A stretch of DNA of 64,000 nt from Escherichia coli (GTDB taxonomy: Bacteria > Pseudomonadota > Gammaproteobacteria > Enterobacterales > Enterobacteriaceae): assembly GCF_045037415.1 (NCBI RefSeq), contig NZ_CP173438.1, one strand, 5' to 3'. A program made the position numbers. Position 1 is the first letter of the stretch, and the number at the start of each line of letters is the position of its first letter. Shown piece after piece: positions 30,001 through 33,000 of this stretch.

Positions 30001-33000
30001 GATGAAAGTGGGGGAGGAAATGAGTCAGAACCTGTACACCAGCATTAGGGGATTCCGCGTCTGGTACAAAGCAGACTATGAGAAGAGAGACGCTATAACA
30101 TTTGAGTCCTACCAATCGATCTGTTCATTTCTATGAATGGCAGTAAATGCAAATAACCAGAACAACCAAAGGTTTTTCGACTTATGTGTCACGAACGGAA
30201 GTAGATGGCAATCCATTGCATTACTTCAGGACGACTTTTCAGAAAGCGAGCTAAGGGCGTTGGCATAAACTCAGGCATCGGATGCTGTTTTACAGGGTTC
30301 ACCTGCCATCCAGTAGACGCCCCAGCCCACGACTGCAACCATAATTACGTTGCCCGGAACCGTCATGCTGCTTCGTCTCATATTTCACGAGATAACTGGC
30401 TCTGTTCCGGGCTTTCTGCATCGCTTCCACATCACCACGCTTGACCCAGAGCACAGCGGATCCACCCGGCTTTTTGTCTGAAGCCTTCCTGGTTTCAGAA
30501 CATCCACCCGACAAAGGCGTATCATCGGAAGAAGGGCGAGCATCAGATGATGTCGGTTTACGGAAAGGCGTCCGCCTGGAAAAATGAACCAGTCCATTAC
30601 CCTGCCAGGGCTCAAGATGCAGAGCACTACACCATGCCAGCTTGATCAGTGTCGCCAGCGAAGAAGGAACGGTGAAATCCCCTGGCGAGCACCAGGTATC
30701 TTTGTTGAGCAGTAATATCACGTGATAATGTTTCCTGCCTTTTTCCTTGCCAAACTCCCGGCACCAGAAATAACGCAGGCTGGTTGCATGCACACGCTGA
30801 TTGGCACATCTTTTTTTCCGCTGGTAAGCCTGAATTTTGGCTTTCAGGGATGCAAAAAAACGAGAAATCACCGCTGAATCCGGATCGGGATCCATGATGG
30901 TGACAGGCATATACTCAGGGAAACGTAAATCCACTCGGATTAACGAGACGGCACGGTGCTGCGCCAGGGCACTGTCGAGAAGGATGTCAAAACGGGATAA
31001 CCAGTAAGCATTGTGTATTGGTTGATTCATGATGAGAGATCTCCGTTGATTTGGATTGACTTCACATCATTCATCAACGCGGTAAAACTTTACGGCATCC
31101 GGCATTGAGCAATGCTACAACTCTCTGATTAAGAGTGATTGAAACGGAACAAACCATCCCGGAACGAAAAGATAATCCTGCACACAGCAGCAAAACACGC
31201 AACAACAGCATGAATGGATTTAAAAACGACATGGACGACGAGAAAAGCCTGAAGGGAAAAGGATCCACAGAACATTCGAACAAAACACCAGAAACGCAAC
31301 CAGAACGCTTCCTGGCAATGCAAATCAACAACAACACCAAAACCTACAGCTTAACCACACAACTCAATCACAGAGCCGAATAGCGCACTTAAAACCTGTT
31401 TACAGATAACCCTGCCACAAGAACAAAAACCACCAATATCAGAATCGATTTTCTTATCCTGAAAACGTTACTTTTCAACACACCATAAAAACGATTAACC
31501 ATCGATAACGTAAATCTCATCTGAATCAAAACACCAGAACCAATCATCACGCTTTTTCTGAAAAGAGCCTTATGATAAAGATAATCACCTTGCACTGAGA
31601 AAAAACACCAGGGCCAGTTAATCATCTCATCAATCTCATCGTCACAAAATCATCCATAGAACCATTTAACAAAATCGTCGCAAGCACACCGTAAATCACA
31701 CCAGGTTATCTCAGTCGGATTTGCGTTTTTACATAAAGACACTTGTTTCAGATTAACGATCTAAAACACGAAAACTCAGAAAAGGTTAAACGTAACTTCA
31801 GCAAAATAGAATGCCATCTTGATTGCTTAAACAGGAAAGATTGTTTTGTGGCAGCATTAAACTGATTTTAATTTTCGTAAACACAGGAGTAACAATTTTA
31901 CCAAACTGGATGTGTATCAGACAAAGCAATGTGTATTGTAATGTTTAATGAAAACACTTTTAGAAGTGTTTATGAAAATACGTGTATGTCTGGTAAAACA
32001 CTTAGTAGAAAATACGTGTATAACACTTACTGAAATGCTTAGTAAAAATACTTAGTAAAATATGTGTATATAGTATCATACCGACATTCTCAATATCTTC
32101 AGACTTCCATACATACTAGGTGTTAATTTTTCACTTTTACAGCCAGCATGGAGTTTTCTGTCCTAAAAACAGAGCAGATTTACTCTGGAATTATTTTTCT
32201 GCCCCCGTACTTCAGGCCCCAGAAAAGACAATCCGAAGCAAACCGTTTGTCAACCTCCATATCATCTTTTACCCCCGGAAAGTGATCGCGTTTTACAACC
32301 AGAATGACAGCCATACTGATTATGTCGTCTCCCGGCCCCTTCACATATAACATGCATGTCTGTCATTGCTTACTGCTCTACATGACAGGATTTCACATAC
32401 AGGATGCGCAGTCAGTGTTTTTATCGCCACTATAACAGACAGATTACTGTCGCTTTTACTCTTCAGATTGTTAATCTGACCACAAGAACAGTCGAACAGT
32501 ACAACGACACACCTAAGGAGGATATGATCCGTAGTTGATAGCATGTTTTATTTTATTATGAATAGATCAAGAAATAGTTCTTGATATGTCTGGAATAGTT
32601 TTGTGAATAGTTCTAGAATATCCCCATAATCAGCTTTGAGGTGCTTGCAGGGTGATATTTTTATTGATTCCCTTGCATATACAACTGACATGTGATGGTG
32701 AAAATCACCAGAAAAGAAAACGATTGAGGCGTAATCAGATGAAACAATATAAAGGCGGTTATAACGTGAATAGATATGACTGGAAAAATAAAACAACTGA
32801 GCATTTATTGAATGATAATAATCTGGCAGATAATCACATACCTGAATGGATCAGAAAAAATGAAATTGCAGCATTCTGGTTCTGGTTAATTATGTCTCAT
32901 ACAGTTCCCGAAAAACTTAAACTTAATAATGAATCTGAGTTCAATTCTGCCTTGAAGGGGGTGATCGTTATGAAGGATAACCCCATGACAATTATTCCTT

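Follow-up and report, generated by a model that had tools for sequence, protein, structure and literature searches.

Results

The locus lies in the Escherichia coli chromosome, in a degenerate CP4-type island whose integrase is present as a fragment only, and we analyzed it as part of a 64,000-nucleotide stretch of DNA (the window). A 1.7-kb gap without annotation, searched as positions 31031 to 32738, is flanked by an "inovirus Gp2 family" gene of the YagK/YfjJ type (30299 to 31030, minus strand) and a gene for an RHH-tailed protein, with an all-helical N-terminal domain and a C-terminal ribbon-helix-helix (RHH) (32739 to 33527, plus strand). In this gap sits a cassette of about 290 bp, placed between the Gp2-like gene, which is transcribed away from it, and a divergently transcribed RHH-tailed/GTPase/anti-restriction operon that leads away from the cassette and has anti-restriction, DUF932, and RadC-type genes downstream. 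An NCBIfam search gave nothing for the four neighboring proteins, and an Rfam search of positions 28000 to 36000 at E values up to 1 gave no match in the gap (31000 to 33000 was empty). An annotated 57-amino-acid ORF at 31210 to 31383 is probably no gene: its relatives carry indels that are not multiples of three, one relative lacks about 150 bp of the region, and the ORF had no family match.

The Gp2-like protein has an HUH-nuclease fold, matched the HUH-type families PF11726 and PF23343, and carries the HUH motifs HYHVILLL and YLVKYETK. The locus thus has a linked gene with HUH and catalytic-tyrosine motifs, as expected for a rolling-circle or HUH-type origin. A PDB sequence search with the Gp2 profile returned nothing, and literature searches on YfjJ, YagK, "inovirus Gp2," and the motif sequences found no functional study.

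The original prediction described a cluster of short direct repeats in the gap, and this clustering is real. The predicted 141-bp segment contains 15 identical 8-mer pairs, a count equaled by none of 1,000 dinucleotide-preserving shuffles (mean, 1.3 ± 1.6); other word lengths (k = 6, 7, and 10) and wider frames gave a similar outcome. Every repeated word that had been listed was found: GAAAATACGTGTAT exactly at 31974 and 32008, with TAAAATATGTGTAT additionally at 32056; ATGTGTAT at 31929 and 32062 and additionally at 31910, just beyond the predicted range; AAAACACTT at 31951 and 31995; and CTTAGTA at 32001, 32038, and 32051. The array spans 31910 to 32069 (plus strand) and interleaves two word types, ..AYGTGTAT (31910, 31929, 31980, 32014, and 32062, plus strand) and ..AACACTT/CTTAGTA (31953, 31997, 32022, 32035, and 32048, plus strand). 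Its units are 11 to 14 bp long, with spacings of 11 to 21 bp and one of 34 bp, in DNA that is 71% A+T. Tandem Repeats Finder reported 31995 to 32060 as 5.2 copies of the 13-nucleotide (nt) unit AAAATACTTAGTA, and an 8+8 palindrome, AAACACTT-TTAG-AAGTGTTT, lies inside the array at 31952 to 31971. The window has six AYGTGTAT sites, five of which lie on a single strand inside a 160-bp stretch. The repeats recur at homologous loci, being kept in position and orientation among E. coli islands with flanks that are 75 to 100% identical; the array there changes by gain or loss of whole units. Judged by sequence, they have the appearance of true protein-binding sites arranged as an array.

The final array unit runs into, and is directly followed by, one half of a bipartite motif, M1/M2, that we defined in the present analysis. 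M1 occupies 32064 to 32088 (plus strand; GTGTATATAGTATCATACCGACATT). Its family consensus, ATATTAC-N4-CCGACA, consists of an AT-rich half and then an invariant CCGACA core (32081 to 32086). All 25 columns of M1 are invariant among six diverged E. coli islands, and its weight-matrix score in the window is 21.8 versus 10.6 for the next best site. The M1-M2 spacer (32089 to 32181, plus strand) is free in sequence and fixed in length; among E. coli islands, 53% of its columns are invariant and none contains a gap, and every E. coli copy has 101 nt from CCGACA to M2. M2 (32182 to 32193, plus strand; ACTCTGGAATTA; consensus, ACTCTGRWRTTA) ends the cassette, and homology between E. coli islands stops about 10 nt past it. 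A hairpin at 32170 to 32187 that could be read as a terminator is not kept at other loci, where conservation is limited to its 3′ half, M2 itself.

Across genera, the M1-M2 distances were 57/58, 67, 77 to 79, 87 to 90, 100 to 102, 112, and 120 to 124 nt, a spacing phased at about 11 bp (Rayleigh R of 0.68, reached by 0 of 5,000 random sets). The M1-M2 segments of 39 loci folded no better than shuffles (mean z, −0.29), and we found no hairpin or conserved inverted repeat around M1 or M2 and no inverted repeat before either. The phasing and the lack of single-strand structure in this segment together indicate a double-stranded nucleoprotein complex. An RNA gene is disfavored by the roughly 11-nt (rather than 3-nt) increments of the spacer and by the absence of excess structure in the segment.

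The M1/M2 pair occurs once per locus and in a single orientation beside Gp2-family genes at about 45 loci in many Gamma- and Betaproteobacteria, at 26 to 50% protein identity and with K-12 yagK included. Exact M2 matches numbered one per locus in 40 of 82 loci and two in one further locus, each beside a Gp2 gene and in a single orientation. M1, which has a single orientation throughout its roughly 45 Gp2 loci, lies 45 to 530 nt before most Gp2 genes; in E. coli the distances are 1 kb to the Gp2 gene and 650 bp to the RHH gene, and in five loci the Gp2 gene is 2 to 4 kb away from the pair. M1/M2 is absent from YfjJ-type arrangements such as CP4-57. The 1-kb region around the cassette had sequence matches in 1,765 of 5,426 complete E. 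coli genomes, at up to eight places per genome, and 2,369 of the 2,370 places were chromosomal. On the 4.8-kb Psychrobacter plasmid pA22P3, which has its own RepM, an M1-like site lies about 45 nt before a Gp2-type gene. A scan of viral contigs for CCGACA-N65-95-M2 gave 120 matches, about four with a real M1; the scan is uninformative on packaging because the remainder were at chance level. In the phage collection, a relative is encoded by a single unverified contig of 4.5 kb, from which M1/M2 is absent.

The array had been described as preceding the RHH-tailed gene, which is true only loosely. The array stops 670 bp short of the annotated start (32739) and 583 bp short of the longest-ORF start (32652); in between are a variable segment and two motifs that are deeply conserved. 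The AF2 model of the RHH tail has an extended segment at residues 217 to 230 and helices at 231 to 244 and 248 to 258, and this beta-strand and two-helix segment aligns across the whole RHH-tailed family, whose members are 11 to 23% identical. Pfam matches in the family are weak (best, 1.6e-3 for RHH_1 and 3.4e-4 for RepB-RCR_reg), and the protein has no Rep family match. The proposed link between this gene and the array has some basis across genera and is unsupported within E. coli. In other genera, the first gene past the conserved motifs belongs to the RHH-tailed family at 30 of 36 loci, and in Proteus, Providencia, Morganella, and Tolumonas, iterons of the array's word family lie 20 to 70 nt before an RHH-family gene; these iterons are past M2 and resemble an ordinary operator. 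The E. coli array is independent of the RHH allele: the cassette remains linked to the Gp2 side under three downstream configurations, namely, the RHH allele of the window, a different allele (island L004), and no RHH-family gene (islands L005, L006, and L203 to L205).

A better candidate, judged by sequence, for the operator of the RHH protein itself is a proximal GAATAG(TT) array (32560 to 32621, plus strand) with sites at 32560, 32572, 32593, and 32605 and a GAATAT variant at 32616. Its repeats occur at steps of 11 to 12 or 21 bp and overlap a predicted promoter, TTGTGA-18-CATAAT (32601 to 32630). This array changes with the RHH allele, being kept in island L003, while L004 has GAAAACCAT repeats instead. 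RHH proteins typically bind tandem repeats, and the operator arrays of omega, ParG, CopG, and Arc/Mnt resemble those found here in having short tandem repeats at one- or two-turn steps near the gene of a product that ends in RHH. The GAATAG array, overlapping a predicted promoter and covarying with the RHH protein, is the best fit to this pattern, whereas the array at 31910 to 32069 lies 670 bp from the gene and is the same with the L004 allele or in RHH-less islands.

Inside M1, we read a candidate sigma-70 promoter in the Gp2 sense, TTGAGA-17-TATACA (32065 to 32093, minus strand). Its K-12 equivalent is the yagK promoter, a sigma-70 promoter known from a genomic SELEX listing (PMC3946193) and bound by H-NS; the reverse complement of the K-12 M1, TTTAGA-16-TATAAT, coincides with it exactly. 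This coincidence could by itself explain the conservation of the AT-rich half. No −35 element was conserved on either side of M1 across genera. Neither flanking gene needs M1 as a promoter, because in E. coli the 100 bp proximal to the Gp2 gene are themselves conserved (85% invariant) and a separate promoter is predicted for the RHH gene. At several loci, convergent cargo genes end 11 to 144 nt past M2, and a rightward transcript from M1 would therefore be antisense to these genes. The binding element of Pseudomonas aeruginosa AlpA, GGGACG (DNA-contact residues numbered 128 to 142; PMC9371919), was considered as a counterpart of M1 and does not match it; that AlpA is also much larger than the island AlpA of about 70 amino acids.

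Discussion

Because an array of apparent binding sites adjoins an invariant motif and an HUH initiator-like gene, the original prediction of an operator array or origin named the right class of element; a theta-type reading and a tie to the RHH gene within E. coli are not supported. We tentatively favor a reading, suggested by sequence and still short of an even chance, in which the array is the variable, protein-binding iteron arm of an origin- or promoter-type cassette of about 290 bp that serves the HUH protein. The cassette, in the order iterons, M1, phased spacer, and M2, would be a core part of a widespread family of islands with P4-type integrases, and the iterons would be multiplied copies of the lineage-specific AT-rich half of M1. 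The commonest repeated 7-mers do recur in that half in at least five lineages, among them Budvicia, where about 20 copies of CAGTATTA are followed by CAGTATTATATTAAACAAACCGACA. Strong exact-repeat arrays adjoining M1 sit on its Gp2 side (summed repeat score, 1573, versus 102 for the 160 nt from the M1 3′ end).

In the mechanism that we propose, the iterons would load an island-encoded, sequence-specific protein beside the invariant CCGACA core. The likeliest protein would be the Gp2-like HUH initiator, with the RHH-tailed protein as a possible accessory, and the loaded complex would contact an M2-bound factor on the same helix face. This assembly would control the promoter overlapping M1 and would melt or nick the AT-rich M1/M2 region, leading to rolling-circle replication or transfer of the excised island; both the identity of the binding protein and the occurrence of nicking at the cassette are points that we infer. 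Such a mechanism would resemble geminivirus or pMV158-type origins, where an initiator on iterons both represses the rep promoter and starts replication.

The M1 consensus ..ATATTAC.. resembles TAATATTAC, the invariant motif of geminivirus and CRESS-DNA virus origins. The likeness extends to an HUH initiator gene transcribed away from the site, to lineage-specific iterons on the Rep-proximal side of an invariant AT-rich motif, and to a site that overlaps the rep promoter region. Unlike those origins, the cassette has no GC-rich stem-loop around M1, has the extra CCGACA core and a second, phased motif, lies in a chromosomal island, and is paired with a Gp2-like protein that has no fused helicase. 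M1 and M2 are conserved in one orientation across the family, and either would be a candidate nick sequence; HUH nick sites are often in hairpin loops, whereas M1 and M2 are flanked by none. Resemblances to the phiX174 origin (CAACTTG/ATATTAATAACACTATAGACCAC), the geminivirus nonanucleotide, and the pT181 nick site are leads only.

The double-strand origin of the pMV158 family has a nic locus, a "bind" locus of three 11-bp direct repeats, the HUH protein RepB, and the RHH protein CopG. The present cassette differs in lacking the IR-I hairpin, in gene order, and in its unrelated sequence motifs, and the RHH here is the tail of a 260- to 340-amino-acid protein. Conjugative relaxosome oriT sites combine an RHH accessory protein such as TraY or NikA with a relaxase. 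Here, too, a conserved site is flanked by an RHH protein and an HUH enzyme, with the RHH accessory gene adjoining the site and, beyond it, an operon of anti-restriction, DUF932, and RadC-like genes of the sort typical of plasmid leading regions; the Psychrobacter plasmid carries, alongside a RepM of its own, a Gp2-type gene with M1 ahead of it. However, the Gp2 family belongs to no recognized MOB relaxase class, pA22P3 is non-mobilizable by MOB-suite, and there is neither a coupling protein nor an inverted repeat before a nick site. A bolder and rather doubtful extension, again suggested by sequence, is that M1/M2 and the iterons are the missing origin of replication and/or transfer of the CP4-type "pathogenicity-island backbone," that YagK/YfjJ proteins are new HUH initiators or relaxases nicking there, and that the anti-restriction operon is the leading region.

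A purely transcriptional promoter-operator region with no DNA cleavage is nearly as likely as an origin-type element, a possibility that we take seriously while not expecting it to prove correct. M1 would then be the core promoter of a Gp2(-AlpA) operon, with its −10 element in the AT-rich half and TGTCGG as an activator site in the promoter spacer. The exact coincidence with the yagK promoter, the TTGAGA-17-TATACA at the same place in the window, and the position of M1 shortly before most Gp2 genes fit this well, but the −35 element is not conserved, and the E. coli M1 is remote from both the Gp2 and RHH genes, which have conserved proximal regions. M2 would be an upstream activator or repressor site in helical register, steps of about 11 bp being classic for activator-RNA polymerase contacts; against this, CCGACA and M2 are far more conserved than island regulators such as the RHH family, and rightward M1 transcripts would run antisense to cargo genes. 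The iterons would be operators downstream of the start point, or before the RHH gene in other genera, and an island repressor, for example the RHH-tailed protein, would bind them. Similar iterons directly before RHH-family genes in four genera, proximal arrays that vary with the RHH allele, and the preference of RHH proteins for tandem repeats agree with that role; the persistence of the E. coli array in islands without an RHH-family gene argues against it.

We think it improbable that the array is functionless by itself, that is, slippage-prone AT-rich DNA beside a conserved motif and at most an H-NS nucleation site silencing foreign DNA. The yagK-yagL spacer of K-12 is bound by H-NS, the unit-number polymorphism resembles slippage, and strong iterons are found in a minority of loci only; in Budvicia, the array is a plain 8-bp microsatellite. 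However, independent lineages place their arrays alike, in the same orientation, and with words that copy their own M1 half. Clusters of AAAYRC.. words occur only beside M1/M2 in about 550 kb of loci, and the unit sequences are conserved among E. coli islands despite the divergence of the spacer.

It is very unlikely that the neighboring RHH-tailed protein serves the array as a theta-type iteron origin or as a partition centromere: the direct repeats do cluster in AT-rich DNA as in pSC101, R6K, P1, and F oriS, RHH centromere-binding proteins of the ParG/omega type bind direct-repeat arrays, and family members have the weak RHH_1 and RepB-RCR_reg matches, but the short units of two interleaved kinds are not 17- to 22-bp iterons repeated regularly about every 22 bp. 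A search for DnaA boxes (TTWTNCACA, either strand, 31031 to 32738) was negative, the surroundings of the array have no IHF consensus, and the nearby annotation includes neither a winged-helix Rep gene nor one for a ParA-type ATPase. Furthermore, the array is not tied to the RHH allele within E. coli, and the element is almost always chromosomal.

Returning to the iteron-bearing cassette that serves the HUH protein, the copy in the window may be inactive, because its island is degenerate and retains a fragment only of the integrase. Islands of this type carry virulence, defense, and toxin-antitoxin cargo, and their conserved core genes include YagK/YfjJ, YfjI, and a YeeP-type GTPase. The family is very common in E. 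coli, being found in a third of complete genomes, and occurs in many other Proteobacteria. The searchable literature describes no cis-acting site for the core of these islands, and the 290-bp cassette beside the HUH gene is likewise undescribed there. With two invariant, phased parts in a compact layout, lineage-specific iterons, and a tie to an HUH-fold protein, the motif is a concrete and cheap target for experiments, and the cassette marks the exact point past which cargo differs between islands. It may be the start point of island replication, transfer, or core transcription. Even if it is only a promoter-operator region, the cassette identifies where control of the island core is chiefly exerted; if M1/M2 is truly an origin or transfer site, supposedly cryptic islands would gain a defined mechanism of mobility.

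Sequence conservation around the repeat array

The repeat words on which the original prediction of an operator array or replicon-type origin was based were all found in place. Clustering of direct repeats was confirmed, with 15 identical 8-mer pairs in the 141-bp array versus 1.3 ± 1.6 in 1,000 dinucleotide-preserving shuffles. Tandem Repeats Finder reported a 13-nt period at 31995 to 32060 (5.2 copies of AAAATACTTAGTA), and of the six AYGTGTAT sites in the 64 kb, five cluster on a single strand within 160 bp.

The window matches E. coli chromosomes such as NZ_AP022525.1 at 100% identity, and the array lies in a degenerate CP4-type island adjoining cadC. 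Only a fragment of the island's integrase remains, and this copy of the cassette (array, motifs M1 and M2, and their spacer) may be inactive in its decayed island. Sequence resembling the 1-kb region around the array is carried by 1,765 of 5,426 complete E. coli genomes, at no more than eight places per genome, and all of these places except one are chromosomal. The local order begins with a restriction endonuclease gene and an "inovirus Gp2 family protein" gene (30299 to 31030, minus strand; Gp2-like), followed by a 1.7-kb gap with a dubious 57-aa sole open reading frame (ORF) and a gene encoding a hypothetical protein with a C-terminal ribbon-helix-helix (RHH-tailed; 32739 to 33527, plus strand). 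After a minus-strand gene for a 317-aa hypothetical protein come genes for a GTPase, an HTH regulator, DUF905, DUF932, an anti-restriction protein, a JAB/RadC-like protein, DUF987, and CbeA/CbtA.

About 600 bp of the gap (31100 to 31700) is A+C-rich and G-poor on the plus strand (AT skew up to 0.56, GC skew down to −0.49), occurs only in E. coli-type islands, and has many indels between islands; the low-complexity 57-aa "hypothetical protein" that RefSeq places in it (31210 to 31383) is probably not a gene. Elsewhere, both strands of an ∼100-nt segment (28303 to 28413) weakly matched plant microRNA-precursor models (best E value, 0.0057, far under gathering scores), which suggests a long hairpin or inverted repeat adjoining a transposase remnant.

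The gap was aligned across six E. coli islands (75 to 100% identical). The DNA from the Gp2-like start codon to ∼32200 is conserved whatever lies downstream, which is the window's RHH-tailed gene in L002 and L003, a different RHH-family allele in L004, and an unrelated minus-strand gene in L005, L006, and L203 to L205. Array differences among the islands are whole-unit indels, and AAACTGG lies 135, 161, 168, 175, 186, or 238 bp from CCGACATT. The 25-nt block directly 3′ of the last array unit is invariant in all six sequences; the following 88 columns are gap-free and 53% invariant and lead to a second conserved block, beyond which invariance falls to 15%.

A phased bipartite motif accompanies Gp2-family genes

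We compared 65 Gp2-family loci, one genome per species (26 to 91% identity), plus a few protein-database contigs. Upstream of the Gp2 gene, a consensus, ATATTAC-N4-CCGACA (M1; 32064 to 32088 in the window), recurs and invariably reads away from that gene. A 23-site weight matrix found variants in loci outside the training set, with forward scores far above reverse scores, and scored 21.8 at 32063 to 32092 in the window, where the runner-up scored 10.6. The second motif, M2, is ACTCTGRWRTTA, 3′ of M1 (32182 to 32193). Exact M2 occurs once in 40 of 82 loci and twice in one, each time beside the Gp2 gene and in a single orientation; we estimate the chance expectation for this 12-mer, with eight allowed variants, at well below 0.01 per locus. 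K-12 yagK has both motifs, both are absent from the YfjJ-type arrangement of CP4-57, and the pair lies 2 to 4 kb from the Gp2 gene in five loci.

CCGACA-to-M2 distances form classes of 57/58, 67, 77 to 79 (13 loci), 87 to 90, 100 to 102 (all E. coli), 112, and 120 to 124 nt, with exceptions at 80 to 81, at 92/93 (one Proteus-Providencia clade), and at 161 (L049, with a weak M1 match). The Rayleigh R peaked at 0.68 near 11 bp, a value equalled by none of 5,000 random sets, or by 7 of 5,000 when each distance value was counted once, in a test somewhat inflated by kinship of the loci. Single-strand folding between M1 and M2 was no better than in shuffles (mean z, −0.29; 39 loci), and neither side of M1 has a conserved −35-like element. 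Because of this phasing, the lack of excess folding, and the lack of a conserved −35, we read M1 and M2 as putative binding sites for proteins on double-stranded DNA that would have to share a helix face. A 16-nt word, TTTTACAGCCAGCATG, occurs in three copies of 75 to 100% identity, each ending in ATG, once inside the spacer (32135 to 32150) and twice past M2 (32291 to 32306 and 32391 to 32406), 156 and 100 nt apart.

The motif loci and the two flanking protein families therefore give a core layout of a leftward Gp2-like gene, iterons where present, M1, M2, and a rightward RHH-tailed family gene, followed by GTPase, HTH, anti-restriction, and RadC-like genes. AlpA follows the Gp2 gene in many loci, as does a DUF3987 (YfjI) gene in some. 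Many loci have cargo inserted 3′ of M2, often convergent, with ends 11 to 144 nt from M2; in K-12, yagL ends 11 nt past it. Homology between islands stops ∼10 nt past M2, at 32200 to 32215 and in many related loci, and together with the convergent cargo ends this marks M2 as a variable-cargo boundary.

The flanking proteins

The Gp2-like protein matches PF11726 (1.5e−34), PF23343 REP_ORF2-G2P (3.7e−8), and PHROG replication-initiation families; Foldseek weakly returned the same families. Residues invariant among 42 relatives include H101, H103, Y213, K216, and K220, corresponding to HUH and YxxKxxxK. The E. coli Gp2-like proteins have a low-complexity, Ser/Pro/Asp-rich insertion of ∼40 aa (residues ∼157 to 189 in the window; pLDDT of <50) that is absent from relatives in other genera.

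The RHH-tailed protein alone gave only weak Pfam RHH matches, and its N-terminal helical domain gave no informative match. BLAST links join it to one family, whose members form the first rightward ORF past M2 in 30 of 36 loci. In the alignment of this family a C-terminal strand-helix-helix is conserved (e.g., ..KAWSQKK.R....K..LNTYISKESK..L..LAK......E.IE.LI), where the structure model predicts an extended segment and two helices. Members (32739 to 33527, L014, L023, L057, L081, and others) are 260 to 370 aa long with 11 to 23% identity, have no Pfam domain, share the W-rich motifs F.W...ER and KWL........WAW.Y besides the RHH, and usually head the GTPase/anti-restriction operon.

Candidate binders of the array

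Most loci lack a strong repeat array. Where one lies on the Gp2 side of M1, namely in E. coli, Providencia heimbachae, Proteus myxofaciens, Limnobaculum, and three Budvicia loci, it repeats a copy of the AT-rich half of its own lineage's M1; the E. coli M1 is ATGTGTAT-ATAGTA-TCATACCGACAT, and the array units are ..GTGTAT and ..TTAGTA. Proteus, Providencia, Morganella, and Tolumonas have arrays of closely similar words (e.g., AAATGCTACGTAAAATACTACGT, and AAAACACTTGA at 11-bp steps) 77 to 111 nt past M2 and 20 to 70 nt before the next gene, and no such word clusters occur elsewhere in ∼550 kb of loci.

The proposed tie between the array and the RHH-tailed gene is not supported in E. coli, where the array is the same with two RHH alleles and with none. 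Two points favor an RHH protein as the binder: the similar arrays of the four genera directly precede RHH-family genes, and RHH proteins generally bind tandem repeats. For the E. coli array, its constancy, the Gp2-side array of P. heimbachae in a locus without an RHH-family gene, and units that reproduce a portion of M1, a motif linked with Gp2-family genes even on a small plasmid, argue for a candidate binder on the Gp2 side.

A proximal array (32560 to 32621), with GAATAG at 32560, 32572, 32593, and 32605 and a GAATAT variant at 32616 (steps of 11 to 12 or 21 bp), overlaps a predicted promoter, TTGTGA-18-CATAAT. It is kept in L003 and replaced by five copies of GAAAACCAT with the L004 allele. 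Its overlap with the promoter and its variation with the RHH allele make it a probable autoregulatory operator of the RHH protein. It also contains the palindrome ATCAAGAA-ATAG-TTCTTGAT. A 4- to 5-nt core common to distal TTAGTA, M1 ATAGTA, and proximal ATAGTT is a weak lead only.

Origin-type site or promoter-operator

We tentatively prefer to see the cassette as an origin-type site serving the HUH protein, promoter overlap included, at which we infer binding and nicking. The iterons would be a "bind" locus, the invariant core and AT-rich DNA the place of melting or nicking, and M2 a partner protein's site, in a cassette overlapping the rep promoter. We count for it conservation of CCGACA and M2 far beyond that of any island regulator, the missing conserved −35 at M1, the distance of the E. 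coli M1 from both genes, each with its own conserved proximal region, and the HUH fold. Such a site would work like geminivirus and pMV158-type origins and, given an RHH accessory protein and the anti-restriction "leading" operon, like a relaxosome.

A promoter-operator region and nothing more is also quite possible, and the two readings fit almost equally well. The K-12 yagK promoter in a genomic SELEX list, TTTAGA-16-TATAAT, where H-NS is bound (PMC3946193), is exactly the reverse complement of the K-12 M1, and the window has TTGAGA-17-TATACA at the matching place. No hairpin flanks M1 or M2, and the arrays of the four genera are in ordinary operator position. A functionless slippage array is improbable, and a theta origin or centromere is very improbable; the remaining probability belongs to something not considered.

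Both the island family and its genes are familiar as annotations, and iterons beside an initiator gene are a known kind of element. For related Pseudomonas islands, a recent preprint counts the Gp2-like protein among the likely core functions. We found no functional work on YagK/YfjJ in the searchable literature, and neither M1 and M2 nor this phased bipartite motif family is described there. The Psychrobacter plasmid pA22P3 (L078; 4,811 bp), classed as non-mobilizable by MOB-suite, has its own RepM and a distant Gp2-type gene with an M1-like AATATTAAAACCGACC ∼45 nt upstream, in the same geometry as in the islands, and could serve as a minimal system for Gp2 protein function.
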